In this document: positions 1,303 to 32,995 of the stretch, piece by piece | How positions within the stretch are numbered: position 1 is the first letter of the stretch | Layout: the number at the start of each line of letters is the position of its first letter | IMG/VR virus record: IMGVR_UViG_3300037602_000058 | Coordinates: 1-43,032 of that record | Direction: 5' to 3' (one strand) | DNA length: 43,032 bases | Origin: a virus | Lineage: Duplodnaviria > Caudoviricetes | The notes under the pieces: generated by a model | The model's database searches: none | The model's input: the letters and a program-made list of their open reading frames with translations, nothing else | Told to the model about the DNA's origin: nothing | Translations under genes and position numbers: made by a program

Positions 1303-1333
1303 TTTGCCAACTCCTGGTTTGTTTCAGGTTCTA

Positions 1334-1362
1334 GGCATACGCGCATTTGACGGTGCCGTCAA
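1334..1362 (-). promoter_or_regulatory. sigma70-type promoter with overlapping palindromic operator
   Basis: TTGACG-17-TATGCC; palindrome TTGACGG-TG-CCGTCAA at 1347-1362. Confidence 0.75.
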
Positions 1363-1366
1363 GTGC

Positions 1367-2980
1367 CTATAGCGCGTCCAGAAACGACCGTTTGCGGGGC
1401 GCAAAGTCGATCATTACCGCGTCCGCATGGTTCGGGCTCTTGGCGCCGTCCGGGGTCTTGATAACCTGAATTTTACCCGCGGTGGTTTGCTCGAATGTGG
1501 GCTGTGACAACTCTTGAATGACTTTGCCCAGGTCCGGCATTGATCCGTCCAGGCAAATCAGATCGTCCGGCTGGTACCCGTTCAAATTGCCCGCCTCGGC
1601 AGCACGAAACGCACGCTGAAATCGCACGCGCAGTTCCCAATATCCTTGAGCCTTGGCATTCGCGAAATAGTCGCCGTTTTTCCGGGCGTTCTTGTCGCGT
1701 TGCCGATCGGGGTTGGCCGTAGGGATCGGATCATCCGGCTTGAAAACCGCGCCGGATCCGCGAAACGCCGAAACCTTGATCTGCCGGACCTTGGCGTCCG
1801 CACGCGCCTGGTTGATCACGCGGGCGTCGCCCCTCACGCCGGCGCCCAGGCCGTCCGCATCGTACGTGAATTCTTCCAGGTTCTCGTTATCGCAGATTTC
1901 GAAAGCGCGCTGGACCGTGCCAAAAATATCGTCCCCCTTGCCCGTCCACGCGCGCACGCTTTCAACCCGGACGCCGGCGGACGCGCAAAACGCGTTCAAG
2001 TCCACGCCTTCGTCGGCCACGTCGAGCGCCCCCCGCCGTTTGCCGCGAAATTTAATCCCCAGCTTTTTGTCCAGATCAACCGCGGCCTGTATCCATGGCG
2101 CCGGGATCAGAACCCCGTGAACGCTTGCGGTGTATGACAAATCAACCTCTTGCGCCAGCGTCACGGGGTCGAGCTCGTCGCACTGTTTGGCGTACCACTT
2201 TTCGTCTTTGCGGGGGTCGTCGCGCCAATGGAACGTAAAAACCGGGATCTTGCCCGAATGCCGGCGGGTCGCAAAACTGTTCGCCATGCCGTTGGGCGTG
2301 GATATGTCTTGCCGGCAGTTGGTAGTTTGGGAAAGCGACGCGTCGACTTTTTGGGGCCTTTCCAAGAACGCCGCTTCGTCAACGAAATAGATGGACTGGC
2401 GATCGCCGCGGCCGATGCCGTCGCCGGCTTCCCCCTGGATGATCGACCCGGTGGCGGGGAACCGTATTAGCATTTCGACGCTGTCGCGCCGTTCGTCCCA
2501 CCCCTGCCGAAACTCCGGGGGCAGTCGCTTGATAAACTCGCGCGCTTTCCAGAACAACGATTTGGGGCTGCCCAGCTTGTCGACGTATTCCGCCTTGCGC
2601 GAGCCGAAGCCGACGCCCACGCCATCCCGAAACAGGCAAAGTGTTGAGGCGGTCGACACGGATAGCCACGACAAGCCGCAGTCCCGGGATTTTTCGGTAA
2701 CGCCAGGCTCGCGCGATTGCCAGCGCTCGATTATCCATTCAATCCATTCGCGTTGTTTTGGGAACAGCACAAACGGGATGGTGGTTGGCAGCCCTACGTC
2801 GGCGTTGCGCGGGTCGAATGTCACGCCCCAATCGTTGATGAATTCCGCGATGTGGTCGCGATAGTAGGCCCGGACGCCCGGCAGCAACTCCGGGTTTGCC
2901 CGCAACCGCTCGAGCCGTTCCAGGCGCTTCTGAAAAACGGCCACGTAATCGGGGTTTTTCCAATCAAACGGCTGGGTCAC
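1367..2980 (-). CDS. terL: terminase large subunit
   Basis: Walker A-like EKSRDCGLS, Walker B YFVDEAAF, RNase H-like ALDVADEG and SPNHADAV; N-terminus PFDWKNPDY typical of Bcep781-like TerL. Confidence 0.95.
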
Positions 2981-3236
2981 GGGCCGCCTTATATTTATCC
3001 CACAAAATCAGCAAAATTTTTGCGCGCGCCCACTCCTGCGGTACTTTAGACCACGGGCGGTCTAGTATGATGGCGATCGCCTCGCACGGCGAAAGACCGC
3101 CCCGAGACGCCAACCTTTTCAGCGTTTGACTATGGTTTTTTTGCGCCTGGGCTTCGTGGGGTTCGAGAACGGACCACGGAATGGCGCGCAAAATCGGATC
3201 GCTCAAAATCGGAAACATGGGTTCCTCTTCTCTCAT
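2964..3236 (-). CDS. hypothetical protein ([11 protein letters not shown]...)
   Basis: ATGA overlap with upstream gene; [26 protein letters not shown] resembles a recurrent small phage protein. Confidence 0.65.
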
Positions 3237-3499
3237 GGCCCGAACCCCCGCCGATCGGCGAAACGCTCCTGGTACCGTTCGCGGTACGGGATCGCGCCGG
3301 CTTCGACCGCGCCGCAAATAATGCGGCTATTCCACCGCGCGTGGTTTTCCATGCCCAGCGCGACGCCGCCCGGTTCATCGTGAACCCCCGTCGCCCGCCA
3401 TATTTCCGCAACCCGAAGACGGGCTGCCTTTGGGCGAACCAGCCACATAAGCCGGATCATGCCGCGCGCCGCCGGCTCGTTTCGCTTGTCGGTCACCAT
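3233..3499 (-). CDS. hypothetical protein
   Basis: 88-aa ORF overlapping both neighbours in operon fashion. Confidence 0.55.
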   Translation of the reverse strand: MVTDKRNEPAARGMIRLMWLVRPKAARLRVAEIWRATGVHDEPGGVALGMENHARWNSRIICGAVEAGAIPYRERYQERFADRRGFGP

Positions 3500-3942: not shown

Positions 3943-4046
3943 GACAGCCCCCACACCACCAACCGCCCTAGACAATCAACGACGCCCACCGCGGCGAAGA
4001 ACCCTATAAAGGCCTCACGCGCCGCGCGCTTTATCCGCCCGTTCAT
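3939..4046 (-). CDS. small hydrophobic protein (35 aa)
   Basis: MNGRIKRAAREAFIGFFAAVGVVDC...; ATGA overlaps at both ends. Confidence 0.5.
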   Translation of the reverse strand: MNGRIKRAAREAFIGFFAAVGVVDCLGRLVVWGLS

Positions 4047-4501
4047 CGTTCCCAATTCCCGTTCTGGATTTCCAGATTGGACGCCATCATGCCGCGGTAA
4101 GCTTCCATGAACGCGTCTTGGATCGCCTGCAGCACGAACGGGTGCGGGTCGGTCGGCAACCCCGGATGGTGCCGCACGATCGCGGCATACGCGCGGCCCG
4201 CCTTGCCTGACAGAATGTCCCGCATCGCCGGCGACGGCTCGAGCGGCACCGCAACGAATGTTTCGGGCGTGTGCGGGGTGTCGCCATAAAGCGCTTCGTT
4301 GACGCGCGCCATGGCCCCTTGTTCCGGCTCGTATTCGGGCCAAAGGTTCAACGCCTCGTAAGCGCCTGGGACTTTCGCGAGCTCCTGCGCGCGATCGAAA
4401 CCGGTAACAAACGCATGCTTGAGCGCGTCGGAAAGATCGCGCGGCCGCAGTTTATCGCGCGCCGAAACCTTGTTTCCCATGCTGTCAAATGTGGATGCCA
4501 T
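4043..4501 (-). CDS. hypothetical protein, first gene of cassette between terS and terL
   Basis: 152 aa; AGGAGTTGGCACAATG leader. Confidence 0.75.
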   Translation of the reverse strand: MASTFDSMGNKVSARDKLRPRDLSDALKHAFVTGFDRAQELAKVPGAYEALNLWPEYEPEQGAMARVNEALYGDTPHTPETFVAVPLEPSPAMRDILSGKAGRAYAAIVRHHPGLPTDPHPFVLQAIQDAFMEAYRGMMASNLEIQNGNWER

Positions 4502-4550
4502 TGTGCCAACTCCTGGAATTGATGGTTGACGGGGTGCGCCCCGCCGCCTT

Positions 4551-4566
4551 TTGACGCTTACGTCAT
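4551..4566. promoter_or_regulatory. palindromic operator-like site
   Basis: TTGACG-CTTA-CGTCAT directly after the terS stop. Confidence 0.65.
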
Positions 4567-5331
4567 TTAAGCCGTTCCGTCAACCATCTTTGCATAGGCC
4601 TCGGCCGCTTCCCGGGGGTCGGTCGTGGTAAGTTGCAGCGATTTTACCTTGGCTTCCATGTCGAGCCGCAGTTTATCGTCAAAGGCGCCCAGGATCCGGC
4701 CGATTTGCTCAAGCGCCTTGTCCTGGTTGGCAAACAGCACCTTTATCCCGTCCTTGGTTTGCTGGACCCCCCGGTACAACATGCGCGCGCCTGGCGACAG
4801 TTTGGTGGTATCCATGGGCACAATGCGGGTTACCCCCTCGCCCTCGCACTCGGCGCATTCCGGGTTCGGGTCGACCGAAAAACGATAGCCGAAGCCGCCG
4901 GCAATGTCGGGCATGGGCACGAGGGCGCCGGTCTTGTCGTTGGGCATCTTTTCCCATTCTGCCAGCGCCTCGAGATATTCCCGCTCTTTCCAATGGTAGC
5001 GGCCGCCGACGCCCCAGCAATGCCGGCACGCCCCAATTCGCTGCGAAATCAATTCGTTAGGATCGACGAAAGCAATTGCGATGTAGGTTTCCATGAGTTT
5101 TCGCGCGTCGAATTCAACGGCTTTTTGGGCCGCTTGCTGCCTTGCCAGCTGCAAAGCCTGGACGCGTAGGGCCACGTTAGGGGCATCCGCCAAACGCGAC
5201 GCCTCGACCCGCACGGCCTCAACGGACATGTTCTTGGCGTCGTACGCTTCCCGGTAAGCGGCGGTTTGGTTCAAACCCTCCGCGCCCACTAGGTGCGCAA
5301 ACCGTTCCTGCTTTTTCGTCAACGCTTTCAT
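4567..5331 (-). CDS. terS: terminase small subunit with Cys4 (Zn-finger-like) insertion
   Basis: LTKKQERFA...NQTAAYREAY...VEASRL HTH typical of TerS; CRHCWG...CAECEG; upstream of terL; start moved to ATG 5331. Confidence 0.9.
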   Translation of the reverse strand: MKALTKKQERFAHLVGAEGLNQTAAYREAYDAKNMSVEAVRVEASRLADAPNVALRVQALQLARQQAAQKAVEFDARKLMETYIAIAFVDPNELISQRIGACRHCWGVGGRYHWKEREYLEALAEWEKMPNDKTGALVPMPDIAGGFGYRFSVDPNPECAECEGEGVTRIVPMDTTKLSPGARMLYRGVQQTKDGIKVLFANQDKALEQIGRILGAFDDKLRLDMEAKVKSLQLTTTDPREAAEAYAKMVDGTA

Positions 5332-5367: not shown

Positions 5368-5368
5368 C

Positions 5369-5720
5369 AAAGCCCGTACTGGCCCGTATAAAGCCCGTAC
5401 TTTTCGTTCGTTAGGGCTTTTCTATTTTAACATATATTTCAATTACTTAACACCCCTATAATACCTAATAATATGAAAAGCCCGTACAAACCCAAACCGC
5501 ATGTATGGAAAGCATAACTAGTTAGTCGTTATAGGCCCATTAACTAATTAGGTATTTTACCGGCTTCCGGTTTGGCTGGTACGGGCTTTTTGGGGGCGTC
5601 CGCATAAGTTATTGAAAACCAAGCGGTTTAACAGGCCCGTACGAACGGTTAAATTTGCTAGGTATTATAGGGTTGACCGCCTAAGCCCCGCGCTTTACAA
5701 AACAGCCGGGAAAAACGGAA
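5369..5720. other. AT-rich non-coding region with direct and inverted repeats; putative replication origin or pac region
   Basis: GCCCGTA copies at 5369-5379, 5381-5389, 5390-5400, 5476-5487, 5633-5642 and inverted at 5579-5590; IRs at 5454-5467/5659-5672 and 5437-5449/5605-5617. Confidence 0.6.
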
Positions 5721-5729
5721 AATATAGTT

Positions 5730-6389
5730 ATGCAAAAACAGCTGCAGAAATACCAGGTACTTTTAGACCCGTCAGGCAAAAGCGTTTCGGTGGGGTATTG
5801 GCCGCAGCCCGGGTTTACCGTTTTGAACGAATTCGACGACATGGACAGCGCCAAGCGCGCCGCCGCCAGCTGGGCCGCCGTCTCTTACGAAATCGGCATG
5901 CTGCAACGGTGGTTCGCCCGGTTGAACCCGGACGCGGGTCTGGCATCGGTTTTTGATCTCCATCAAGTCCCGCCGCGCGACATCACGCCCGATGCGACAC
6001 AAGAGATATACCAGACCGTCGTGGGCATCTTTGAAGCCCTGGTTATGGCAGAGCCCGGGACGATGCTGGAAAAATTCCAGCGCATGGGCGGCTCGCCTTT
6101 GCTGGCGCACTTTTGCGGCGTCCGTTCGACCCCTCTAACGCCCCGGGAACGCGCCATGTTCCTGCAGCAAGAGCAAACGGGGCACCGGACCGAAGACGCC
6201 GGGACCGTCGCGCGGGTGGCGAATGACCGCCGTTCCAAGCTGGTTATTGAGCCCGCCACGGGCCGGACGTGGTCGAGTGCTGCCGATTTGGCCCGCGAAC
6301 TGGGTTGCCACCCCGTTTCGCTTTATGCTCACTTGGGCGCCCGGAGAACACCGGCCACGATCTATAAAAGGGCGTTTGAATATGCGTAA
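5730..6389 (+). CDS. hypothetical protein with C-terminal NUMOD1-like HTH
   Basis: 219 aa; C-terminal LVIEPATGRTWSSAADLARELGCHPVSLYAHL. Confidence 0.7.
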   Translation: MQKQLQKYQVLLDPSGKSVSVGYWPQPGFTVLNEFDDMDSAKRAAASWAAVSYEIGMLQRWFARLNPDAGLASVFDLHQVPPRDITPDATQEIYQTVVGIFEALVMAEPGTMLEKFQRMGGSPLLAHFCGVRSTPLTPRERAMFLQQEQTGHRTEDAGTVARVANDRRSKLVIEPATGRTWSSAADLARELGCHPVSLYAHLGARRTPATIYKRAFEYA

Positions 6390-8589: not shown

Positions 8590-9429
8590 TTACCAGCGCC
8601 GGAACAGCTTGGCAAGCAACGCCCAAAATCCGGTTGGTTCGGTCTTCGGTTTCGGCGCCGGTGCATCGACGTTAACGCGCGTCGGATCCGATTGCGGGGG
8701 TTTGGGCGCAGGCACGTCGACGCGGGGGGATGTCCACGCCGGGGGTGTTTCCGGCAGGGTCGTCGGCTTGGTCGCGCCGGTTTGCCCCCAGCCGGCCGCC
8801 ACAAGCGCCGCGTGGAACTTCCAATGGTTGGCCGTAACTTCGGCGTCGGATCCGTCAACCCCGTTCACGATGCGCCGGGGGTGCAAACCGGGCGGGTTGT
8901 CGAGTGCCGAAGGGAAGCCAAACCGGGAAAGCTTGATGGCGCCGTGTTTGTCGCGGCGAAATTTCCCCTGGACCATGCCTTGCACCGCGATCTTGGCGCC
9001 GGTGACGGGCTCGAGCGCGCGCTCCGGATGCTTGCGCAGCGGGACGCCCAGCAAGCGTTCGAATTTCTCGTAATTCGGCCAATGCGTCAACTGGATCGGC
9101 CCCCGGCCAAAAGCGCCGTCCCGCCAATAGGGGGTTTTCACGCCTTTGAGTTTGCCCGAAGCGTACGCGCGGTCCAGCCTGGCGATCACGGTTGCGTCGG
9201 ACGGGTTCTTGTCCTTGTGCCACGGCATCACGGTTTCTTTGATGCCCAGCATGTTGCCGCCGGTTTCGCGGTGGACGTTCGCGAGTATGTGCGCGGCGTG
9301 GTGGGCGTCGTTCACTTTGGACGACTGCATTTCCGACAAAAGCGCATTCATACCGTCCACCTGGGCGTCGGTGAGCGATCCACCAAAAACGTTCTTGCGC
9401 ACGGCATTGTAAAAAATCGTTCTGTTCAT
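8590..9429 (-). CDS. endolysin, GH19/lysozyme-like
   Basis: AHILANVHRETG and FGRGPIQLTHWPNY motifs; ATG 9429 with GGAG RBS; head of lysis cassette. Confidence 0.85.
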   Translation of the reverse strand: MNRTIFYNAVRKNVFGGSLTDAQVDGMNALLSEMQSSKVNDAHHAAHILANVHRETGGNMLGIKETVMPWHKDKNPSDATVIARLDRAYASGKLKGVKTPYWRDGAFGRGPIQLTHWPNYEKFERLLGVPLRKHPERALEPVTGAKIAVQGMVQGKFRRDKHGAIKLSRFGFPSALDNPPGLHPRRIVNGVDGSDAEVTANHWKFHAALVAAGWGQTGATKPTTLPETPPAWTSPRVDVPAPKPPQSDPTRVNVDAPAPKPKTEPTGFWALLAKLFRRW

Positions 9430-9449
9430 TGTGGTTTTCTCCGGTTTGT

Positions 9450-9491
9450 TAAACAAAAACCCCCGCAGCGTTGGCAAACTGCGGGGGTTTT
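9450..9491 (-). terminator. intrinsic terminator-like hairpin between promoter and endolysin
   Basis: 13-bp stem AAAACCCCCGCAG (9456-9468)/CTGCGGGGGTTTT (9479-9491), 10-nt loop, T-rich tail on minus strand. Confidence 0.8.
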
Positions 9492-9527
9492 CGGTCGGGT
9501 CAATCCTTGGGAGGCTTGTTCCTACGG
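9450..9527 (-). ncRNA. predicted ~75-nt small RNA or attenuated leader
   Basis: Promoter at 9533-9561 and terminator at 9450-9491 bracket it; loop UUUGCCAACG; contains CCUCCC. Confidence 0.5.
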
Positions 9528-9532
9528 TGCTG

Positions 9533-9561
9533 AACCTATCCGCAAATGACGGCGCTGTCAA
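9533..9561 (-). promoter_or_regulatory. sigma70 promoter with operator palindrome
   Basis: TTGACA-17-TAGGTT; ATGACG-GCGC-TGTCAA at 9546-9561. Confidence 0.8.
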
Positions 9562-10245: not shown

Positions 10246-12672
10246 CTATCGTTTGAATTCGGCAGCGGTGGTTTCGCTGATCGCTTTGTTTTGGGCTTCG
10301 CTATAGACGCGCGCCACATCTGCCGGCGTCTTGAGGTTCTCCCACGGTATCGAGCCGATTTTGCAGAACAGCCGCGGTTTGGTGTTGTCGGGCGCCACGA
10401 TCGACTTTGTGCGGCCGTTGTTGTCGGCAAGCGCGGGGTGCCAGTCGTAGCCCAGCGCTTGCATGATCTGGCGCCGTTTGTTTCGCGGGATCCGCAACCG
10501 CAGCCGGTCGATCAACTGATCCAGCGACTTTGATGAAATCCAACCGCCGCAGAAACCGGGCGTATCTTCGCCGACGGCTTCCAATATTTCCTGTTCTAGG
10601 TGCCCGCGGCCCGAAGCCACGGCAACGTCGGTCGAGCTCGTACGCGGCGCGCGGATCACAAGGCGCGCCGGATCAAAGCGCGCTTCAATCGCCCGCGTGT
10701 GGAGATAGTGCCCCATAACCCGGATGCCATAATTTTCGCCGTGTCCGGCATATTCCCCCAGGCCCAAAAGCCAATCGCGCAAATTGGCCACGTAAGCGTC
10801 TGTCATGCCGTCGCGCTGCATGTCCGCCTTGGTTTGCTGGGCGCAGAAAAACGCCCCGTACCGGCGGTCTTCGTCCACGATCGGGACGCCGTCTTGGTGG
10901 TTCGTAACGATAATTCCGTTTGCGCGGTTATCCCCAGTTATTTCTTCGACGCCTTTGCCCTCAATCGGTATCGTTCGATTGGTTACGGTCGTTTTGAAGC
11001 CTTCGAAAAACTCGCGGCGGTCGGCGGCGTAAACTTCGTCCAGGCCCAGGAACAGCTTGCATTCAATCCAGCCATTAAAGTTGCTGTCCCCCTTCACCAT
11101 CTTTTTCATGTTCGGCATATGGGCGTAGTGCGAGCCCACGGCGTTTGACATGATCAGCAGCAAGAACGATTTAAAGTTGCCCTGGGCGCCTTGAACGACA
11201 GGCCACCATTGCATCTTTGCACCGGGGTTCTGCACCACGCTTGCCATGTACGAGAGCAATAGCTCGAGATCGTCGCCATGGGGCAGCATGCGCCGCATGT
11301 GGTCAACAAACGGCGACGGGTCGCCCGGCGTAATGTCAACGTGGGCCGGGAAATAGGCATTGGCCAGGCGCTTACCGCTATCCATGACCACGCCGCCGGC
11401 GCCATGTTCCGGCCGGAAGCAAAGCCGATCGGCAACGGTTGGTTTGAACGTCCGCGCCTGGGTGAACGCTTCCCACGCGCTCGAAGTCATTTTCTTGCCA
11501 TCGGCGGAAAGGACAAAATCATATCCCCCATAAACCGCATCAAACCGCCCTTGGTTGAGCAAGTCGCCGCCCGGCGTGAGGATCTTGTGAACGCTGGCGA
11601 CATAGACGCAGCCCCCAAAATGCAAAAGCTGGTCGTGGTGTGACTTGATGCCGTCCCCGGGTCGTGTCTCAAAACCGGACGCGGCGGCTTGGTCGCTTGT
11701 AACGGGCGGCGGTGGTGGCACGGCGGCGGCTTCGGCGGGTGCTTTGTAAACGCCGGTAACCAGCTGCCGTGCCTTGAGGATTGTTCCTTCCAGGTAGTCG
11801 GGCCGGTCTTCCCATTTCTGCCGCAACAGGGCGCTTCGTCGCATGAGCCGTTCCATGCGTTCGCAGTTACGCCCCGTCCAAAACGCCAGCTGGTTTGCAA
11901 GCGACTGGTCCGCGCTGGACGCGTCGTACGGGTTGCCCCCGGACCCGGGCCAGCGTTTCGCCAGCGCGTCCGCATCGGCGGCCCATAGTTCGGCAAAAGA
12001 CAGTTTGCCCGGGCCGCCGAACGCATCGGCGGCGCTGTTGCCCCCCGACCGCAAAGCCCGGTTCAAAAGTTCGTCGTCGTCTTCCGGCCCGGACCATTCG
12101 GGGTCCGGTTCCGTTGTCCAGTCCGCCGGCGTCTGCCCGGCCACGGGCTCGAAGTATTCGGCAACCAGCGAAGCCACGGCGGCCGTGTGGTCGGTGGCGG
12201 CGGATCCGGTCGCGGACAGCCCGGTTAGTGCAACAAAACGCTCTTGGCTGTATAGCTCGATACCCAACGGGACGTTTTTGTTTCGGTGCGGCGGCAAACT
12301 CGAATACCGCCCTATGACGTGCAAGCCTGTCCCGGATTGCGACACTTCGACGCACGCACCCGCAAACCGTCCGCAAAGTTCGTTGGCAAGTTGTGACCAC
12401 GCGCCGTCGATCAGCGCTTTGTCTATGTCGAGAAAAAAGAACGGATCGGCAGCGGTAAACACGAAGCCCACCCCGGCCATGCCCTGGGCGCCGCAGTACG
12501 CGCCCGCCTGTTCGTATGTGCCCCAGTCGGACGGGTTCGTGGACGACGCCCGGCGCCCATGGATCGGGGAGTATGGGATTTTGTCCCATTTTTCGCGCGG
12601 CGCGTTCCACTCAAGGCGCCACGCGACGAATTGTGGCCATTCGGCCAAAGGTGCCAACGGTTGTGCGAGCAT
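10246..12672 (-). CDS. primase-polymerase/SF3 helicase fusion (NrS-1-like)
   Basis: AEP motifs FLDID, SQSGTGLH, IELYS; helical DxSSADxxLAxxLAFWTG; Walker A GAQGNFKS, Walker B LGLDE. Confidence 0.9.
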   Translation of the reverse strand: MLAQPLAPLAEWPQFVAWRLEWNAPREKWDKIPYSPIHGRRASSTNPSDWGTYEQAGAYCGAQGMAGVGFVFTAADPFFFLDIDKALIDGAWSQLANELCGRFAGACVEVSQSGTGLHVIGRYSSLPPHRNKNVPLGIELYSQERFVALTGLSATGSAATDHTAAVASLVAEYFEPVAGQTPADWTTEPDPEWSGPEDDDELLNRALRSGGNSAADAFGGPGKLSFAELWAADADALAKRWPGSGGNPYDASSADQSLANQLAFWTGRNCERMERLMRRSALLRQKWEDRPDYLEGTILKARQLVTGVYKAPAEAAAVPPPPPVTSDQAAASGFETRPGDGIKSHHDQLLHFGGCVYVASVHKILTPGGDLLNQGRFDAVYGGYDFVLSADGKKMTSSAWEAFTQARTFKPTVADRLCFRPEHGAGGVVMDSGKRLANAYFPAHVDITPGDPSPFVDHMRRMLPHGDDLELLLSYMASVVQNPGAKMQWWPVVQGAQGNFKSFLLLIMSNAVGSHYAHMPNMKKMVKGDSNFNGWIECKLFLGLDEVYAADRREFFEGFKTTVTNRTIPIEGKGVEEITGDNRANGIIVTNHQDGVPIVDEDRRYGAFFCAQQTKADMQRDGMTDAYVANLRDWLLGLGEYAGHGENYGIRVMGHYLHTRAIEARFDPARLVIRAPRTSSTDVAVASGRGHLEQEILEAVGEDTPGFCGGWISSKSLDQLIDRLRLRIPRNKRRQIMQALGYDWHPALADNNGRTKSIVAPDNTKPRLFCKIGSIPWENLKTPADVARVYSEAQNKAISETTAAEFKR

Positions 12673-12678
12673 GACGCG

Positions 12679-12981
12679 TTACGCCGTCGCCAGATAGGCC
12701 GCAGCCTTTTCCCGTATCTCTTGCGGCGCGGCAAGGACCAGCGCGTGCCGATCCCCCAGCCCCTGGGCAACAACGGGGATTACCCCGCGTTCGATCGCGG
12801 CGGACAAAACCGCGCGTTTCAGTTCCGGCATGGTGCCAAAGACGTTGTTGATGGTCCCCAGCGATACGCCGGCGGCGGTTGCCACACTCTCGCGCGTAAT
12901 CCACTGGTACCCGACGCTGCACGCCAGTTCCAGCGCCGCGTCCAGGATGCGGGCGTCCCGGTTCTCGATAATTTTAGCCAT
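12679..12981 (-). CDS. TetR-like HTH transcriptional regulator
   Basis: RILDAALEL...GYQWITRESVATAAGVSLGTINNVFG; ATG 12981 with AAGGA RBS. Confidence 0.85.
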   Translation of the reverse strand: MAKIIENRDARILDAALELACSVGYQWITRESVATAAGVSLGTINNVFGTMPELKRAVLSAAIERGVIPVVAQGLGDRHALVLAAPQEIREKAAAYLATA

Positions 12982-13312
12982 TGTCTGCGGTCCTTTTGGG
13001 CGTTCGATCGCCGGATGGTATAACGCTATTGACGACCCCGTCAAGTAATCTGCGGCGTTGGGGTGTGGGGTCCCCCAGAATAGCGGCCGTTAACGTGTCA
13101 GGATAGTCTGTTATGCGAACGCGCCACGCCGGGCGGTCCGGGGGTGTTTTTGGTTTGCGCGGCTTCGCAGACTTTGGGCCGTATCCGGGCGTGACGATCC
13201 GCCGAATGGTCATATGATGGACCCCGAAGTGATCGGCGACCGCGGCAAAGCTTTTCCCGCGGTCGATCATTTTTAACACGCGGTCGCGCGGAATGTGTTT
13301 TTTCGCGGGCAT
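12974..13312 (-). CDS. HTH DNA-binding protein
   Basis: KMIDRGKSFAAVADHFGVHHMTIRRIV; TAATG coupling with the VRR-NUC gene. Confidence 0.7.
   Translation of the reverse strand: MPAKKHIPRDRVLKMIDRGKSFAAVADHFGVHHMTIRRIVTPGYGPKSAKPRKPKTPPDRPAWRVRITDYPDTLTAAILGDPTPQRRRLLDGVVNSVIPSGDRTPKRTADNG
13017..13044 (-). promoter_or_regulatory. promoter/operator upstream of the TetR-like gene
   Basis: TTGACG-ACCC-CGTCAA at 13029-13044; TTGACG-16-TATACC. Confidence 0.75.
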
Positions 13313-13920: not shown

Positions 13921-14133
13921 TTATCCTTTCGGGAAATATGGGTGTTTGGGCCTGGGTAGCCACGCCACGGGCCATTCCGTCGAAGCGAGGTTTGCCCAGC
14001 GCCCGCCGGGGTGGAACTTGTTTGGCGGGATAAAATGGCTGAAAAGCACTTCGCCCGCCATGGTCCCGACGATCACACGGCGGCCGTCGGTTGGCAAGTT
14101 TTCGATGTCGGTTCGCAGCGTGATTTCGATCAT
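13921..14133 (-). CDS. hypothetical protein (DUF551-like)
   Basis: IENLPTDGRRVIV...PVAWLPRP pattern; ATGA overlap. Confidence 0.6.
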   Translation of the reverse strand: MIEITLRTDIENLPTDGRRVIVGTMAGEVLFSHFIPPNKFHPGGRWANLASTEWPVAWLPRPKHPYFPKG

Positions 14134-14333
14134 GATGGTTTCCGCCAATCGTCGGCGATCGCCTTTTCTGCAGACGCGCGCGTTGCGTCGGAAACGAGGA
14201 TTTCCCCGTCGTGGTCGTACACCGTGAAAAACCCGCTATCCTCTTCGATAACGTGCCCCGTGTCCAAACACCCGTCACAAGAGGACCCGAACGTGCCGTT
14301 GCGGCGCAGATATATGATTGCGTTGCTCGTCAT
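14130..14333 (-). CDS. hypothetical protein, first gene of cassette
   Basis: AGGAGTTGGCAAAAATG leader sets start at 14333. Confidence 0.7.
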   Translation of the reverse strand: MTSNAIIYLRRNGTFGSSCDGCLDTGHVIEEDSGFFTVYDHDGEILVSDATRASAEKAIADDWRKPS

Positions 14334-14360
14334 TTTTGCCAACTCCTAGTTTGTAAAAAT

Positions 14361-14389
14361 ACTCTAGCCCTAAATGACGGGGGCGTCAA
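14361..14389 (-). promoter_or_regulatory. sigma70 promoter with operator palindrome
   Basis: TTGACG-17-TAGAGT; ATGACG-GGGG-CGTCAA at 14374-14389. Confidence 0.8.
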
Positions 14390-16121
14390 ATAGAATTTTT
14401 TCGATCAAGGCGCCCGCCTCGTTTGGTCCGAACGCCAGGCAGGTCAGGACGTCCACGCCGAAGCGTTCAAAAAACAGCTTTTGGATTTCTCGATCGGACA
14501 GCCCCCGAGCGTGCCAGATGCCGCCCCAAACGGCCATGGTTTCCCGCAGCGCTTTTTGCGCTTCGATCTTCGGGGCGTGGGTTTTCGCGTTTCGCCAAAT
14601 GAAATGCTGCGGTAACCCCGTCGCGGCCAGTTTTGCCCGGTAGTCGTCCAGGCTCATAACCGCTTCGGCCGCCTTGTTTCGCAGCGCTTCCAGCATGGCC
14701 GGGTCCATCATGACCATATCGCCGTCAACCGCAGCCGGCGAAGCGCGCGCCGCGGGCGGGGGTGGTTCGGACCCGCAGTACGGGCAACACGTCCGGAACT
14801 TTTCATACGGTTGCCCGCACTCCGGAACGTTAAGGCACGCCCGAAACTGGATCGCGTCCGAAGGCTCGTTTTTGCCTCGAGTAGATGCCAGGTTCCACAC
14901 GCATGGCCGATCGGGCGGACCGTGCCGGGTGAAGTTGCCCACGTGGTCGACGACATACGCAATGGGCTTTGGGCTCGCGGCGATGGCCGCCAATCGCTGT
15001 TCGCGCGTTTGGGCCGCCTTATATTCCGGCGTCATGAGCGGCCGAAGAACCCGCCCGATCTGTTGCCGGACCAACCCTTTGGACGCGGACGCCCGCGCCA
15101 ACGTAGCAACCTCGAGCGCGGGAAAGTCGGTTCCTTCGGAAATCACATCAACCGCAAGAATGACGTGGACTTGGCCGGCCTCAAGCCGATCGAAGATGCG
15201 CCAGCGCACCGCGTCGTCCGTTTCCCCGGTAATCAGTTCGGCGACAAAACCCGCGCTTCGATATGCGGTAAGCATTTCGGTCGCACGCTCGACACTGGAC
15301 GCAAACACGACAGCGCGGCGCGGGGTCTGGGATGCGGGGACCCCGCGAATACACCCGGCGTTCAAATTGCGATACGTCTTTACCGCGTCGCCAATGATCG
15401 GCGTTTGCCCCTCGGCGGCTTTCAATTGGGCCGTCGACCAATCCCCGGTTTTGCCCACGGCGCCCAGTAGATCCACCACGTGGCTATCCGCGCAAACCAC
15501 CCGGTAGTCGCATAGATACCCCTCGTTTATGAGCCACCGCATGGGCGGCCCCTCAACCATGAAATCGGCAACCCCCGCGCCGCCCAATTCTTCCGACCCC
15601 AGCCCCTGCCCGTCGGCGCGTTCGGGCGTGGCCGTCGGCAGCAACCCCCGGACGGCCGGGTTGGTGAATTTGGAAATCGCCGTATGCCATTTATTGCCGA
15701 CGACCAGGTGGTGCCCTTCGTCGATAACCCAAAGCGTGACGGACGCGGCCCAATTTTCCAGACCCTTACGCCGCACAAGTGTATCCACACTGGCGACCAC
15801 GCATGGCGCGTTGGGGTCGAAAAACGATCGACCGAAGATTTTAACGTGCCGTTCTGCGATCTTCCGGCGGTTCTTTTCGCTGGCGATGATGTTGTGACGA
15901 ACGCCGCACGCCGCAAGCGCAATCGACAGTTGGGAAACAATCGTGTCCCGGTGAGCGATCACACAAGACGCGCCGACGTGGTCCTGGATAATAGACGCGA
16001 GCGTTGCGGTCTTGCCCGCCCCGGTATCCATCCGCAAGATGACCACGCGACGCCCGGCGGCCCATGCCGCGAGCGTTTCGGCTTTGGCTTTAGCCTGGTA
16101 GGGTCGAAGCGTTACGGTCAT
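14370..16121 (-). CDS. superfamily II DEAD/DEAH-like helicase with Zn finger
   Basis: LRPYQ, DTGAGKT, IDEGHH, TATPER, EGTDFP, QQIGRVLR; C..C...CPYC. Confidence 0.92.
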   Translation of the reverse strand: MTVTLRPYQAKAKAETLAAWAAGRRVVILRMDTGAGKTATLASIIQDHVGASCVIAHRDTIVSQLSIALAACGVRHNIIASEKNRRKIAERHVKIFGRSFFDPNAPCVVASVDTLVRRKGLENWAASVTLWVIDEGHHLVVGNKWHTAISKFTNPAVRGLLPTATPERADGQGLGSEELGGAGVADFMVEGPPMRWLINEGYLCDYRVVCADSHVVDLLGAVGKTGDWSTAQLKAAEGQTPIIGDAVKTYRNLNAGCIRGVPASQTPRRAVVFASSVERATEMLTAYRSAGFVAELITGETDDAVRWRIFDRLEAGQVHVILAVDVISEGTDFPALEVATLARASASKGLVRQQIGRVLRPLMTPEYKAAQTREQRLAAIAASPKPIAYVVDHVGNFTRHGPPDRPCVWNLASTRGKNEPSDAIQFRACLNVPECGQPYEKFRTCCPYCGSEPPPPAARASPAAVDGDMVMMDPAMLEALRNKAAEAVMSLDDYRAKLAATGLPQHFIWRNAKTHAPKIEAQKALRETMAVWGGIWHARGLSDREIQKLFFERFGVDVLTCLAFGPNEAGALIEKILFDAPVI

Positions 16122-16876
16122 TTTTCCTCACAAAAAATGCCGCATTCAATGGACATGTTTTTTAGGGGTCGGCCAATGGCGTTTTGCGGCAGTTCATCCA
16201 AAAAGATGCGTTTTCCCTGGTACCGTACGAGCCTAGCCCCCAGCCGCCGCGACTGTTCGGCGCGCTCTGCGAAAACCTCCGGGCGCGTGCGCCGTACCAA
16301 GTTCCAATAAGTCGGGCTTGTGGCTTTCACGCACCCGATGCAATTCGCGTTCGGGTAGCCTTCCGAATAGACGCGGGGCAGGGAAAGGCCTTGTCCGATC
16401 AAAAACCGCGCGCAGTCTTCTTTCGTCATGCCTGCGTCAATTAAAACCGGAATTACATTGCTGCGTTCGGTCAAGACGAAACGGTCAAACCGTGATTTTT
16501 CGTCTGCCGTAAAACCCAAAACATGCCAGTCGACGCGCCAATGGCGTTCGTAATCCTGTCTCGCTTCTTTTTTCAGGTGGACCGTGCAAGGCGCGCCTTT
16601 AGGAAAAACCATCGCCCCGCGGCGGTCCCATACCATCTTTGCCGAACCTTCGGGGTACTTCGGGGAAACGTGGCGTATGACGGGGCGGTTAAGCCAGCGT
16701 TCGACGTCTAATTGGAAACGTAAGTTATCCGCATCCTCTTCGATAACGGGGTTGTTGATCACGCGAACGTTGCAGGCTTCGCCGAAGCGCTGCAGGGTGA
16801 TGAAAGCCGCCAGCGCGGTGGCGGCCCCGTTAGAAAACCAGACTGCAACATTGTCGCCGGGCTTAGGTCGTGCCAT
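16118..16876 (-). CDS. PAPS-reductase-like / adenine-nucleotide alpha-hydrolase family protein
   Basis: VWFSNGAAT (degenerate PP-loop), APCT..LK, GFTADE..R, NANCIGCVK, ECGIFC; start from GGAGTTGGC leader. Confidence 0.75.
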   Translation of the reverse strand: MARPKPGDNVAVWFSNGAATALAAFITLQRFGEACNVRVINNPVIEEDADNLRFQLDVERWLNRPVIRHVSPKYPEGSAKMVWDRRGAMVFPKGAPCTVHLKKEARQDYERHWRVDWHVLGFTADEKSRFDRFVLTERSNVIPVLIDAGMTKEDCARFLIGQGLSLPRVYSEGYPNANCIGCVKATSPTYWNLVRRTRPEVFAERAEQSRRLGARLVRYQGKRIFLDELPQNAIGRPLKNMSIECGIFCEEK

Positions 16877-16899
16877 TTTTGCCAACTCCAAATTTTTAT

Positions 16900-16939
16900 T
16901 TGACGGGATCGTCATAACGGTTTAGGGGTAGGCGGTCAA
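16900..16939. promoter_or_regulatory. overlapping divergent promoters sharing one operator
   Basis: Plus TTGACG(16900)-17-TAGGGG; minus TTGACC(16939)-17-TATGAC; palindrome TTGACG-GGAT-CGTCAT at 16900-16915. Confidence 0.7.
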
Positions 16940-17706: not shown

Positions 17707-18824
17707 GCGATCACGCTTTTCTAGCCCCCTCGTCGGCCTCGGCGTGGGGGCCGGGGGGCTGCCCCGCCTATCCCCGAATGGCGGCCGCTTTCCCGGAAGA
17801 CGGCAGCACGCTAGAGGCTCGCGAGGGGGACGCCGCGCATTGGTATGTTTCCGAAACGGCGCTGGGCCGCCGGCCGGAAATGGGCGCGGTTGCCCCCAAC
17901 GGGCACCCCGTCAACGAAGAAATGGCGGAATGCGCGTGGGCCATGGTTACGGATATTTGCGCCAAGATCGAAGACCCCGCCGTCATGACGGCCACGGAAC
18001 AGCGCGTGGAAATGCCGGAAATCCATCCGACCTTAAACTGGGGCCGCATGGATTTTGGGGCGATCGACCCGACAAAGCGAATTCTTTACGCGTGGGATTT
18101 CAAATACGGCCACGGGTACGTTGACGTTTTTGAAAACTGGCAGCTTGTGGATTACGCCGTCGGCGCCGCGCGGCATTTCGGCGTGACAATTGACCACACG
18201 TGGACGATAGACAACCGGATTTACCAGCCGCGATCGTTTCACGAAGACGGGCAAATCAAACGCTGGGTTTGTGACGGCGCGCGGTTTCTCGAATTGCGCG
18301 CCCAACTCGCGGCGGCTGCTACTGCGGCGGTCGACCCCGACGCGCCAATGGTCACGGGGGTGCAATGCCACCACTGCCCGGCCCGTCACGCGTGCCCGGC
18401 GCTTAAACGCGTCGGCGGGGTCGCCATGGACATGTCTTTGCGCGGCGTGCCCCTTGAGCTCGAGCCGGAAAATGCGGGGCTTTTGCTGCGCATGGTCCGC
18501 ACGGCCCGTGAAAGGCTCGAAGACCTTGAAACCGGTCTGGACGCGTATGTGTCGGAAGCGCTACGGTCGGGCGTTCGGATCCCGGGTTGGGAAATGAAAC
18601 CCGGCACTGCGCGGGAACGGTGGACGCAGCCCGTTGCCGACGTGCTGGCGCTGGGCGCTGTCCTGGGCGTTGACCTGCAAAAGCCCGTCGAGCCCATCAC
18701 GCCCGCCCAGGCTCGCAAAAAAGGAATTGACGCCGCCGTCATATCGGCGTATTCCGAAAGACCCCCCGGCGCCGTCAAGTTGCAGCCGGTGGACGAAAAA
18801 GACATCCGGAAAGCTTTTCAGTAA
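17703..18824 (+). CDS. DUF2800 Cas4-like exonuclease
   Basis: HAFLAPSSA..W...C, EGDAAH, GRMDF, DFKYG, NWQL..YA, QCHHCPARHAC. Confidence 0.88.
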   Translation: MSDHAFLAPSSASAWGPGGCPAYPRMAAAFPEDGSTLEAREGDAAHWYVSETALGRRPEMGAVAPNGHPVNEEMAECAWAMVTDICAKIEDPAVMTATEQRVEMPEIHPTLNWGRMDFGAIDPTKRILYAWDFKYGHGYVDVFENWQLVDYAVGAARHFGVTIDHTWTIDNRIYQPRSFHEDGQIKRWVCDGARFLELRAQLAAAATAAVDPDAPMVTGVQCHHCPARHACPALKRVGGVAMDMSLRGVPLELEPENAGLLLRMVRTARERLEDLETGLDAYVSEALRSGVRIPGWEMKPGTARERWTQPVADVLALGAVLGVDLQKPVEPITPAQARKKGIDAAVISAYSERPPGAVKLQPVDEKDIRKAFQ

Positions 18825-19904: not shown

Positions 19905-19908
19905 TGAT

Positions 19909-20007
19909 TGGGGGCCGTGGGTCGGGTTGGCTGTAATCTCTCGACTTGGCCCCCAGTAGGGCCGAACCGCCGTAAATTCCCCCCGGTGGTTCGGCCCTTT
20001 AATTTTT
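19909..20007 (+). terminator. two hairpins; the second is an intrinsic terminator-like structure before the polymerase RBS
   Basis: TGGGGGCC...GGCCCCCA, then AGGGCCGAACC...GGTTCGGCCCT-TTAATTTTT. Confidence 0.7.
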
Positions 20008-20020
20008 GGAGTTGGCGCGA

Positions 20021-22267
20021 ATGTGGGCGATTGAGCAACACGCAACGATTGATTTTGAAACGTATAGCGAGGCGGGCCACGTCTGGGACGAAGACGGCCA
20101 AACCTGGCGCGCCCCACCCGGCGCCCAGAAAAAGGGAATTGCGGCCGTTGGCGCGCTGGCATACGCCGAACACCCCACGACCGAAGTTCTAACTATGTCC
20201 TATAGGTTGCCCGGGGACGTGGCGGTTTCTCGGTGGCGGCCGGGGCTGCCGAACCCCCAGCGCCTTTTTGACCACATCGCCGCGGGTGGGTTGCTCGAAG
20301 CGCATAACGCCATGTTTGAGCGCGCCATATGGTTTTTCGTTTGCCGCCGGCGCTACGGTTGGCCAGACCTACCCCCGCAACAAATGCGGTGCAGCATGGC
20401 GAAAGCCCGGGTGAACAACTTGCCCGGCGCGCTGGAAAATTTAACGGCGGTGTTGCCGGTCCAGGTACGCAAGAACCCCGACGGCAAACGGCTATTGAAT
20501 AAATTTTCCATACCCCGGAAACCGACCAAAAAAGACCCGCGCACGCGGATCCTGCCGGCAGATGATCCCGACGACGCGGAAAAGCTTTACGCCTATTGTG
20601 ACGACGACGTGCGCGCCGAAGACGAAGCGAGCGCGTTGACTATGCCCATGAGCGTTAACGAACTGCGTTTCTGGCAGCTGGATCAGCGGATAAACTGGCG
20701 CGGGGTTGGCGTCGATCGGCGGTCCGTCCGAAACATGATTTCGGTACTGGAACAGGCTGTGGGCAAGTACGGCGCCGAATGCCGGGAAATAACCGGCGGC
20801 ATCAAGCCAACCGAAGTTCAGCAGCTGCGCGGGTGGATGTGCGCCCACGGGCTTGACCTTGGAAGCCTAGACGCCGAAGCGATCGAGAACGCGCTAGAGC
20901 GGCCGGGCTTGGCGCCGCACGTTCGACGGGTTCTTGAAATCCGTCAATTGATTGGTTCCGCCAGCGTCAAAAAGCTTTACGCGTTCGAACGGTCTGCCAG
21001 CAACGACAACCGCGTGCGGAATATCATCACACACCACGGCGCGAGAACGGGGCGCCCGACCGGCGACCTTGTGCAGCCCCTCAACATGCCAAAGGCCGGC
21101 CCGGATTTGATTTACTGCGGGTGCGGCAAGCCTCACGCGCGCCGCGACGTGTGCCCGTGGTGCTGCGTGCCCGTGCCGCCGGAACCACGGTTTTACAAAT
21201 GGCCGGACGCGCCTAAAGGTCACACGGAAAACCCCGTTGACGCGGTGCAAGAAATCATGGCGTCCCGAAGCCTCGAGACAGTTGAATACTTTTTTGGCGA
21301 CGCGCTGCTTTCCATTTCCGGATGCATGCGCGGCATGATTTGGGCGGACGAAGGCCACGACTTGATCGCGTCGGATTATTCGGCGATTGAAGCCGTGGTA
21401 ACTGCGGCGCTTTCCGGGTGTGAGTGGCGCATGCAGGCTTTCCGGGAACGCAAGGATATTTACCTTGTTTCCTGCGCGGCCATGGGCCTGGGGCTGGCAT
21501 ATGAGGATTACAAGCAATATAAACTTGAACACGGATCCGACCACCCGCACCGACAGAAAAAAGGTAAAGTTGCGGAGCTCGCGCTAGGCTTTGGCGGTTG
21601 GGTTGGCGCCTGGCGTCAATTTGACCCGGACGGCGCCACGGACGAAGAGGTTAAGGAAACAATCCTAGCTTGGCGTAAAGCGTCCCCTGAAATCGTGGAA
21701 ATGTGGGGCGGCCAGGAACGCGGGCGCCCATGGGACCGCGATTACCGCTTGGAGCGTTACGGGTTCGAAGGCGCGTTCGTCAACGCCGTGCAGTACCCGG
21801 CGCAGTCTTTCCAGGCGCACGGGATTACCTTTTTTATGAGGGGCGATTGTCTTGTGGTCCGGCTGCTTTCGGGCCGGGAATTGTGCTACCACGGGCCGCG
21901 GCTGCACCCATCAAGCCGGGAATATGTCGGCGCCGGCGTCTTGGAAATCACTTATAGGACGTGGAACAGCAACCCGAAATATGGCCCCGTTGGCTGGGTC
22001 ACAATGCAGACTTACGGCGGCCGCCTTGCGGAAAACATTATCCAGGCCACCGCACATGACATTCAACGATACGGCATTGAAGCGCTTGAAGCCGCCGGGT
22101 ACCCGATCGTTTTGCACGTCTATGACGAAAACGTGGCCGAAGTTCCGCACGGGTTTGGGTCGATTGAAGAGTTTGAAAGCATTATGTCGAGAATGCCGCC
22201 ATGGGCTGCGGATTGGCCCGTCCGCGCCTCGGGCGGCTGGCGCGGACGGCGGTACCGGAAAGCTTGA
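20021..22267 (+). CDS. family A DNA polymerase with 3'-5' exonuclease
   Basis: IDFETYS, AHNAMFE, YC.DDV, ARTGR, ASDYSAIE, GKVAELALGFGG, ENIIQA, HVYDE; start from GGAGTTGGC leader. Confidence 0.95.
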   Translation: MWAIEQHATIDFETYSEAGHVWDEDGQTWRAPPGAQKKGIAAVGALAYAEHPTTEVLTMSYRLPGDVAVSRWRPGLPNPQRLFDHIAAGGLLEAHNAMFERAIWFFVCRRRYGWPDLPPQQMRCSMAKARVNNLPGALENLTAVLPVQVRKNPDGKRLLNKFSIPRKPTKKDPRTRILPADDPDDAEKLYAYCDDDVRAEDEASALTMPMSVNELRFWQLDQRINWRGVGVDRRSVRNMISVLEQAVGKYGAECREITGGIKPTEVQQLRGWMCAHGLDLGSLDAEAIENALERPGLAPHVRRVLEIRQLIGSASVKKLYAFERSASNDNRVRNIITHHGARTGRPTGDLVQPLNMPKAGPDLIYCGCGKPHARRDVCPWCCVPVPPEPRFYKWPDAPKGHTENPVDAVQEIMASRSLETVEYFFGDALLSISGCMRGMIWADEGHDLIASDYSAIEAVVTAALSGCEWRMQAFRERKDIYLVSCAAMGLGLAYEDYKQYKLEHGSDHPHRQKKGKVAELALGFGGWVGAWRQFDPDGATDEEVKETILAWRKASPEIVEMWGGQERGRPWDRDYRLERYGFEGAFVNAVQYPAQSFQAHGITFFMRGDCLVVRLLSGRELCYHGPRLHPSSREYVGAGVLEITYRTWNSNPKYGPVGWVTMQTYGGRLAENIIQATAHDIQRYGIEALEAAGYPIVLHVYDENVAEVPHGFGSIEEFESIMSRMPPWAADWPVRASGGWRGRRYRKA

Positions 22268-32245: not shown

Positions 32246-32475
32246 TTTTTAGAGGCGTCCTTATGGGCCAGCCATTGATTGAACTGCGACGTTACAATGA
32301 TTTCCCACATCACGAAAGCGTCTTCGAGACTATAGACGGCCCTCAACTCTTGGAGCGTGGCTTTTCCGTTTGCAACGATGTGGCCAATGAAGGGATCAAC
32401 GTTTGGGAAATCCACTGCACGGCCTTCTGGCTGAAACTCTCGAAGGAACCGGAGTTCAGCCCGTTGCCGAAAAAA
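32242..32475 (-). CDS. tail assembly chaperone, -1 frameshift extension (GT-like)
   Basis: ATLQELRAVYSLEDA motif; entered via T TTT TTC at 32469-32475. Confidence 0.7.
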   Translation of the reverse strand, partial: FFRQRAELRFLREFQPEGRAVDFPNVDPFIGHIVANGKATLQELRAVYSLEDAFVMWEIIVTSQFNQWLAHKDASKK

Positions 32476-32780
32476 CTTATGTTGTACTCCAATTGCGACC
32501 ACTCGAGCCGCGCCAGCGTTTCCCAGTCCGGCACGTGGTTATCCACAAGCGCGCGCGTCGTGAGGGGCAAATGCGCCCCTTCGGACGTGACGACCGCCGT
32601 GAACGCAAGCAGCTTTAACATAACCTCTTCGGACTGTTTGTAATCGCCCAGCTTCGGGACATTTGAAACCGGGTACTTGGTCACGATTTCCCGGCCTTGA
32701 ATGGCCGGGAACTTCGATATGACGTAAGTTTTTTCTTCGCCGGCCTGGGTCTTGAGCGTGATTTCTTTGGGCTCAATCAT
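32343..32780 (-). CDS. tail assembly chaperone (G-like)
   Basis: 145 aa between tube and tape measure; LEYNISFF. Confidence 0.8.
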   Translation of the reverse strand: MIEPKEITLKTQAGEEKTYVISKFPAIQGREIVTKYPVSNVPKLGDYKQSEEVMLKLLAFTAVVTSEGAHLPLTTRALVDNHVPDWETLARLEWSQLEYNISFFGNGLNSGSFESFSQKAVQWISQTLIPSLATSLQTEKPRSKS

Positions 32781-32980
32781 GCGTCGCGCGCCTTGATCAT
32801 CGCATCCGCAACGTCATACGCGGACGCCGCCATCTCATGCAGCGACGCCGACGCGGGGGCCTGGGAAAACACCACCGGCAGCGCGGCCATTGCGAATTCA
32901 TCCCGGCGGCGCTTGTGCTCGAGAATTTCGCGCACTTCGTCCGCGGTCATTCTTTCGTTTTCGATCGCTGTCGCGTCCAT
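32777..32980 (-). CDS. small moron-like protein
   Basis: RRDEFAMAAL...AYDVADAMIKAR; AGGAGTTGGCCAAATG leader. Confidence 0.75.
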   Translation of the reverse strand: MDATAIENERMTADEVREILEHKRRRDEFAMAALPVVFSQAPASASLHEMAASAYDVADAMIKARDA

Positions 32981-32995
32981 TTGGCCAACTCCTAT

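Follow-up and report, generated by a model that had tools for sequence, protein, structure and literature searches.

The window, i.e., the whole 43,032-nucleotide stretch analyzed here, corresponds to an entire 43-kb contig that was rated 97% complete. It represents a myovirus with genes for terminase, portal, capsid, sheath, baseplate, primase, helicase, SSB, and a family A polymerase; neither a tRNA nor a tmRNA was found in it. No cultured close relative was found, and the best identities were approximately 50% (polymerase), 53% (capsid), 61% (terminase), and 45% (primase). Because no tyrosine integrase, serine recombinase, or ParA-type ATPase was detected in any of the five records searched for each (the window and four relatives), we consider the phage to be probably lytic. 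Among the 120 endolysin matches listed, the five homologues named by organism were from Ancylobacter, Pelagibacterium, and Pseudohoeflea, which are Hyphomicrobiales. This is a weak pointer to an alphaproteobacterial host.

A short box ahead of dispersed start codons

The 9-mer GGAGTTGGC, which combines the Shine-Dalgarno (SD) core GGAG with the hexamer GTTGGC, occurs six times in the window, against a mean of 0.34 in 100 shuffles (shuffle maximum, 2). The coordinates and strands of all six sites given in a preliminary description of this DNA were correct (Table 1). The enrichment is confined to the exact form; 15 one-mismatch matches were found and 12.5 were expected. As previously described, every copy precedes an ATG by 3 or 4 nt (3, 3, 4, 4, 4, and 3 nt for the six sites). 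The boxes open ORFs of 67–748 codons, namely, four without an assigned function (one with weak PHROG matches), a PAPS-reductase-like gene, and the polymerase gene. A repeat finder run on the window did not pick up the box. GTTGGC was present before none of the 29 starts of virion, lysis, or packaging ORFs in the window. The earlier statement that the structural-gene starts examined lack the motif thus holds for the window, but not without exception beyond it, as the fragment G006 carries one box directly before a tail-assembly gene.

Table 1. Positions of the boxes, operators, and predicted RNA elements in the window
Feature	Position	Strand	Context
Box (SD GGAG + GTTGGC)	1306..1314	-	3 nt before ATG of 117-aa gene of no assigned function (949-1302), just after terminase large subunit
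Box	4505..4513	-	3 nt before ATG of 152-aa gene of no assigned function (4043-4501), between terminase small and large subunits
Box	14338..14346	-	4 nt before ATG of 67-aa gene of no assigned function (14130-14333), after helicase
Box	16881..16889	-	4 nt before ATG of PAPS-reductase-like gene (16118-16876), the stop of which overlaps the helicase start
Box	20008..20016	+	4 nt before ATG of family A DNA polymerase (20021-22267)
Box	32984..32992	-	3 nt before ATG of 67-aa gene (32777-32980), an insertion behind the tail tube gene; stop overlaps the following tail gene's start
Predicted small RNA, ~70 nt	9455..9525	-	Between primase and endolysin; weak 5' hairpin and 16-bp terminator hairpin with U-tract
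Terminator loop TTGCCAAC, 8 nt	9470..9477	-	GCCAAC at 9470-9475 is the exact complement of GTTGGC
Promoter-like site of predicted RNA	9533..9561	-	TTGACA (9556-9561), 17 nt, TAGGTT (9533-9538)
Operator palindrome TGACG-N4-CGTCA	1348..1361	.	Overlaps promoter -35 of 1306 unit
Operator palindrome	4552..4565	.	Upstream of 4505 box
Operator palindrome	14375..14388	.	Overlaps -35 of 14338 unit
Operator palindrome	16901..16914	.	Overlaps -10 of 16881 unit; divergent intergenic gap
Operator palindrome	33047..33060	.	Overlaps -35 of 32984 unit; conserved leader hairpin follows
TetR-type helix-turn-helix protein	12679..12981	-	Exact operator in own promoter (13030-13043); no box at start
Terminator-like hairpin	19958..19998	+	After SSB gene, directly upstream of polymerase box

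Related contigs (G001–G003) were obtained from 4 of the 16 stretches returned by an operator-plus-box scan, the pattern of which could match with or without an ATG. The presence of one box was the basis on which these three were selected; G030 was found independently via its primase alone. Together with the window, they make up five box genomes, four of which are complete (G001 is a partial contig). The remaining stretches of the viral-contig pattern scans (12 of 16 and 8 of 12) were rejected as isolated matches outside the clade, and a scan for the leader-hairpin pattern (76 stretches) returned box-bearing matches only in three relatives that were already known. The major virion and packaging proteins of the relatives are mostly 50–86% identical to those of the window.

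When the frequency of the motif was compared with the positions of starts, as the preliminary description had proposed, 27 of 28 exact 9-mers in the five genomes were located 2–6 nt before an ATG, against a background of approximately 4%. The counts were 6/6 in the window, 3/3 in G001, 9/9 in G002, 3/3 in G003, and 6/7 in G030, in which the seventh copy lies 1 nt from an ATG. Each of these genomes (the window and its four closest relatives) has six to ten box-led genes, which are scattered and mostly non-virion. The slots that recur lie between the two terminase genes, behind the large-subunit and tail tube genes, on either side of the helicase gene, and ahead of the polymerase gene. They are occupied by unrelated genes: only 3 homologous pairs were found among 38 box-led proteins, a set from which five matches antisense to or inside known genes were left out by hand, and 8 of the 31 proteins scanned had any PHROG family.

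In the relatives, these slots also carry GGAGGTTGGC and AAGGTTGGC, and GTTGGC is kept behind GGAG, GAGG, and AAGG cores; only GTTGGC is therefore constant, and it is found in two registers. The SD core itself differs between boxes, as do their spacers and flanks. The conserved 9-nt leader that was initially described is thus the form seen in the window, whereas the relatives keep an SD core plus GTTGGC. As read from this comparison, the functional unit is the SD core with GTTGGC rather than a fixed 9-mer.

Pairing with 16S rRNA was evaluated against the canonical 3' tail, from which that of the host may differ. Extension past the SD adds approximately 1 kcal/mol with this tail in one register (-8.8 versus -7.8). 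TGGC is unpaired with the canonical tail in the GGAGG register, and the final C pairs in neither register. GGAG-u-UGG is able to form a second short helix with the same tail. Assuming the canonical tail, 16S pairing does not explain the conservation of GTTGGC in two registers, and the earlier view that TTGGC is not accounted for by such pairing was borne out.

Operators and a predicted small RNA

The palindrome TGACG-N4-CGTCA occurs in the window in 8 exact copies and in 13 copies with at most one mismatch, against 1.5 expected; in most cases, it overlies a -35 element, TTGAC, that is followed by a 17-nt spacer. It lies within 90 nt upstream of five of the six box sites. Among the eight exact copies, five stand at the head of a box unit, and three do not. 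The polymerase box (20008) is preceded by a 15-bp hairpin and not by a palindrome. The proposal that each box-led gene is the first after a palindrome or hairpin is consequently valid in the window, but does not extend to the relatives, in which a box may also occupy a later position in its unit, as several do within operons of G002. The TetR-type protein is likely, by inference, to be the binder of these operators; approximately 40 homologues of it, with identities of 55–73%, are on record. Since TetR homologues and TGACG-N4-CGTCA-type palindromes also occur in box-less relatives, the box appears to be a layer separate from the operators.

A small RNA of approximately 70 nt was predicted between the primase and endolysin genes, with its 5' end (9525) placed according to the -10 element. 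The predicted unit folds at a z of -4.7, and its terminator hairpin starts approximately 40 nt past the TTGACA-17-TAGGTT site. A consensus scanner called neither the promoter, which was below the threshold, nor the terminator; by inspection, the -10 element agrees with the consensus at 3 of 6 bases, and the U-tract is engaged in pairing with the stem. An operator with one mismatch (9547-9560) overlaps the promoter-like site in the window, and the hairpin is located approximately 25 nt before the endolysin start. No match at the gathering score was found in the window with Rfam. Nine sub-threshold Rfam matches at the RNA locus were rejected as generic terminator or leader models.

The terminator loop was predicted to be 95% unpaired and the box hexamers only 6–50% unpaired in local folds. 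The computed energies of loop-box duplexes were approximately -9 to -12 kcal/mol. Loop-box pairing is guaranteed over 6 bp only and stops short of the stem. The one contig from an RNA library that covers the locus is 947 nt long, runs into the neighboring genes, and gives neither the ends nor the strand of a transcript. In a near-identical strain, the predicted RNA is unchanged among 7 listed differences over 246 nt while neighboring genes are swapped, which is weak evidence for its retention.

Conservation of the complementary loop

The GCCAAC loop was found at the primase-endolysin locus in all four complete box genomes (the window, G002, G003, and G030). The primase-endolysin interval of each of the latter three contains a long hairpin that has the loop CCGCCAAC(C) and lies behind a promoter-like site similar to that of the window; the loop length across genomes is 8–9 nt, and a -35/17-nt/-10 site is present ahead of the hairpin in 4 of 4 complete genomes. 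G030, found via its primase, carries the same loop right after that gene. The partial G001 contig ends just past a similar promoter-like site at the same position. The operator variant in the promoter of the predicted RNA is present in the window and G002, and not in G003, G030, or G001.

The 12 stem pairs adjoining the loop are kept in all four genomes; nine of them vary, eight with changes on both sides. The U-G pairs and the U-tract function only on the GCCAAC strand, and they thus fix the strand of the RNA. The 5' parts of the four RNAs were not alignable by MAFFT. The hexamer is invariant across relatives on both the box and loop sides. The two variable loop bases do not follow the bases after the box, and a genome's own loop pairs better at 4 of 6 true sites in the window, at only 4 of 10 in G002, and at none in G030.

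A blind screen was performed in which start-region hexamers were ranked and all terminator-like loops were then tested against the ranking. It returned one hairpin each in the window, G002, and G003, and the hexamer matched was GTTGGC, at ranks 1–3. In the 16 further genomes or records screened, one of which was the partial G001, no loop matched a top-20 hexamer. The probability of a chance loop match was 0.011–0.025 per genome; because of their shared ancestry, the four supporting genomes are not independent draws. All four complete box genomes have GCCAAC wholly within a loop, versus 0 of 18 more distant records, some of which are partial. SD+TTGGC+ATG sites were absent from 17 of these 18 records, and the remaining one had a single site. 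In G031, a distant, box-less genome, GCCAAC spans a tetraloop and its closing pair after the primase gene, in a repeat-rich and AT-rich stretch; this is either a chance occurrence or a loop without targets. No convincing case in which the box and loop had changed together was found in 16 other genomes or records, 106 primase loci, and 80 terminase loci. The few candidates flagged in this search were rejected as UUCG-type or anti-SD loops.

Proposed regulation, alternatives, and related systems

The features that we read directly from the sequences are the box itself, its placement ahead of starts, the two registers, and a complementary loop that is kept on diverged stems at one locus in four genomes. 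We consider it fairly probable that a phage antisense RNA represses a set of the phage's own early messages through pairing of its terminator loop with the boxes. The RNA of approximately 70 nt would be transcribed from its own promoter-like site and end at the hairpin. Its loop GCCAAC would pair over 6–8 bp with GTTGGC between the SD and start codon, perhaps with the help of a host chaperone. A duplex in this position normally blocks the 30S subunit. Pairing would block ribosome loading, and the box messages may be turned down together.

Regarding timing, we speculate that the TetR-type repressor turns down operator-bearing promoters while the stable RNA accumulates, and that the accumulated RNA silences leftover or read-through messages. 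The RNA could outlast the repression of the box units because the operator variant in its promoter is found only in the window and G002. Of the six units in the window, four are co-directional with the packaging genes, tail genes, or helicase gene that they lie among or behind, and later read-through would copy these units again. Two box-led genes in the window overlap the start of a core gene (helicase and the next tail gene, respectively), so that box control could extend downstream by translational coupling.

The preliminary description had suggested a control box bound by RNA or protein, or a homology tag for cassette exchange. The complementary loop of the conserved predicted RNA favors binding by RNA, and no good candidate was found for the protein. 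Binding by a phage or host protein, either a translational repressor or an SD-cutting RNase, for which T4 RegA and RegB may be compared, with the loop being a chance match or an other-strand decoy, is unlikely, if the best placed of the alternatives. RegB targets are GGA-centred SD sites with a conserved 3' extension, and the RegB/S1 system resembles the present one in that a GGAG ribosome-binding site with such an extension marks early messages for joint shut-off; however, RegB is a protein nuclease, and the extension is degenerate and A-rich, unlike TTGGC (PMC1702504). The AAGG variant of the box lacks GGA, and no RNase, other nuclease, or RNA-binding family match was found among the small ORFs scanned; the box was rejected as a RegB/S1 target site on these three points. 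An 84-aa protein without an assigned function (2964-3218) is present in 3 of 3 complete box relatives and in 0 of 4 box-less ones tested. However, it has no family and no usable fold match, lies at different loci in the relatives, and belongs to a stretch that is replaced in near-identical strains. The hairpin of the window may also be read as a plus-strand terminator with GTTGGC in its loop, whereas the U-G pairs, U-tract, and promoter favor the GCCAAC strand in the other three genomes.

Next in order, and also improbable, is a real pairing with the reverse effect: the RNA activates translation of box messages, or these messages control the hairpin, an attenuator in this case, and through it the read-through into the lysis genes. 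The hairpin is located between primase and endolysin in all four genomes, close to the endolysin start in the window, and boxes predicted to be partly paired in their leaders could be opened by binding. However, the pairing site lies between the SD and start codon, where a duplex is expected to hinder the ribosome. Moreover, a separate operator-promoter stands between the hairpin and endolysin in G002, G003, and G030, and the loop contact does not invade the terminator stem.

We regard as more doubtful again the possibility that the box, without any regulator, is a ribosome-binding cassette passed on by inheritance and serving as a pivot for recombination at gene-insertion slots, and that the loop match is coincidental. 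The occupation of the same slots by unrelated genes is in accordance with it, as are 2 of the 7 joints listed from near-identical strains, which fall at a box edge: at 16879, the PAPS-reductase-like gene is replaced between the box and ATG, and at 1315, the DNA just upstream of the box is replaced. However, the other 5 joints lie away from boxes, GTTGGC remains constant while flanks, spacers, and the SD core vary, and the same joints are expected if selection maintains a box ahead of each new start. The homology tag suggested earlier therefore agrees with some of the joints, but leaves the invariant complementary loop on diverged stems in four of four genomes unexplained. Extended SD pairing further into the 16S tail of the host, canonical or variant, is very improbable: the second short helix and the host's own, possibly different, tail speak for it, but the energy gained is small, the last base of the box stays unpaired with the canonical tail, and none of the 29 virion, lysis, or packaging starts uses the extended 9-mer. 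Readings as CsrA, sigma-54, Chi, or boxA sites were dropped because they would fit poorly to the flanks or strict position of the box.

By its position, orientation, and conservation, the box is a new start-associated sequence (SAS). SAS and ESAS were reported in cluster K mycobacteriophages and cluster EF Microbacterium phages (PMC3203893, PMC7302621, PMC11373665). They have been described in actinobacterial phages since 2011, and in 2024, their role was still described as unknown (PMC3203893, PMC11373665). Similar to these elements, the box is a short, asymmetric, multi-copy repeat that is oriented with its gene, occupies the ribosome-binding position within a few bases of the ATG of genes that are mostly non-structural, is conserved at positions beyond 16S pairing, and is preceded in a subset of cases by an inverted repeat and promoter (here 5 of 6 window sites). 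The distance to the start, mostly an ATG, is 3–7 nt in SAS and ESAS. It differs from the SAS and ESAS of these accounts in sequence, in its shorter length (an SD core plus 6 nt), in its two registers, and in its 6–10 copies, and also in its carrier, a myovirus of a probable alphaproteobacterial host in which no integrase was found. Membership in the cluster K sequence family was rejected because the motif differs from the 13-bp consensus given in PMC3203893. Furthermore, a candidate RNA partner is encoded in the same genome here, whereas none is named for SAS in the text available of the cited accounts.

The predicted RNA resembles the C4 antisense RNA of P1 and P7 in its length (approximately 77 nt for C4) and in having a loop complementary to a short stretch of the phage's own mRNA where ribosomes bind. 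C4 has three stem-loops, is excised by RNase P, uses two pairing loops, and serves temperate-phage immunity (PMC5320573); in contrast, the predicted RNA has one conserved loop, which is on the terminator, and 6–10 dispersed targets. A C4 assignment was rejected on the basis of this single conserved loop, the lack of a gathering-score Rfam match, and the absence of C4 among the nine weak matches.

A likeness in design is also seen with ManS of Salmonella and RepG of Helicobacter, in which the terminator loop is the seed, is longer than usual and C-rich, and engages G-rich leader or ribosome-binding sequences in a kissing complex (PMC11745405). By prediction, all four complete genomes have the corresponding arrangement, i.e., a stand-alone short unit with an intrinsic terminator and an exposed loop complementary to the leaders of its targets. 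ManS and RepG are host RNAs with loops of 12 and 17 nt, whereas the present RNA has a loop of 8–9 nt, is encoded by the phage, and would be directed against a tag that recurs in the messages of the phage itself. The phage sRNAs covered in the available text of a 2025 review target, for the most part, single phage genes or host genes (PMC12197685). Our full-text literature searches, which included this review and had most subscription papers outside their scope, returned no description of a phage RNA antisense to an SAS.

If antisense repression through the terminator loop is correct, a phage sRNA controls a dispersed set of the phage's own genes, including the polymerase gene and the helicase chain. 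This would also explain how swappable accessory genes amid late genes stay on schedule. A broader view, which we find evenly balanced, is that this lytic-looking phage has an RNA-only, regulon-wide translation switch in which one 70-nt terminator-loop RNA silences every gene arriving behind a six-base tag, bringing newly acquired genes under immediate control, and that SAS in general may be the targets of such RNAs. With a 6-nt tag, one candidate RNA of 70 nt, and natural variants, the clade offers a compact test case for this type of control.

The predicted sRNA and neighboring non-coding elements

The endolysin frame of the window (8590-9561, minus strand) is open across the predicted sRNA and its terminator, as far as the TTG of the -35 element. 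Gene callers might extend endolysin too far and thereby hide this RNA. In three relatives, an additional operator-promoter and leader are placed between the candidate sRNA and endolysin (Table). The window carries no second operator-promoter or leader in this interval. A GTGACC...GAGG motif is common to G002 and G003, both box-bearing. The leaders are possibly a further non-coding RNA or a lysis attenuator. GCCAAC, present in the loop of the predicted sRNA terminator, also occurs after primase in G031, a distant phage without boxes, in a terminator-like hairpin embedded in repeated CCCCGTAT units.

Coordinates of the features (L-numbers, stretches of relatives' DNA: L031 and L032 apparently from G002, L034 apparently and L035 from G003, L176 apparently from G030, L143 from G031)
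Feature	Location	Remark
84-aa protein, no known family	window 2964-3218 (-)	
Second operator-promoter and non-coding leader, 150-200 nt	L031 3554-3770 (+); L034 17764-17960 (+); L176 about 12620-12800 (+)	
GAGGTTGGC, antisense within head protease gene	window 39899-39907 (+); L031 19857 (-); L034 5837 (+)	
Two tandem hairpins 3' of SSB gene	window 19905-20000 (+); L032 about 18650-18760 (-); L035 about 9345-9425 (+)	
Terminator-like hairpin after primase	L143 12350-12560 (G031)	GCCAAC across CCAA tetraloop and its closing pair
AT-rich stretch without genes	window 5370-5730	between lysis region and small terminase subunit
Longer inverted repeat (GATGGTTGACGG ... CCGTCAACCATC)	window 4520-4590 (-)	surrounds operator upstream of 4505 box

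Polymerase and head protease genes

The tandem hairpins after the SSB gene sit immediately upstream of the polymerase box. Their loops are C-rich and anti-SD-like in G002 and G003 (CTCCTCCC), whereas the second hairpin of the window has a weaker loop of this kind; the motif is missing from G030. These hairpins could pair in cis with the SD close by, or represent a second 3'-derived RNA. The polymerase ORF itself comprises 1030 codons in G003 (L035 9454-12543) and 748 in the window; it is likewise longer in some other relatives, where the match is in two pieces. The longer ORF is possibly due to an intein or other insertion.

Since the head protease gene of three genomes holds antisense GAGGTTGGC, the late mRNA itself bears GCCAACCTC. 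This probably reflects codon constraint, and these matches were excluded from the count of box-led proteins.

The 84-aa protein and inverted repeats

The 84-aa protein was found in all three complete box-bearing relatives, but in none of the four box-less ones tested. A further 42 homologues are on record, and its DNA stretch is replaced between near-identical strains. GCCCGTAC occurs as a repeat unit, alongside a long inverted repeat, in the gene-free stretch of the window, which is a candidate origin or packaging site. Because the operator upstream of the 4505 box lies within a longer inverted repeat, this leader could double back onto its own promoter region.
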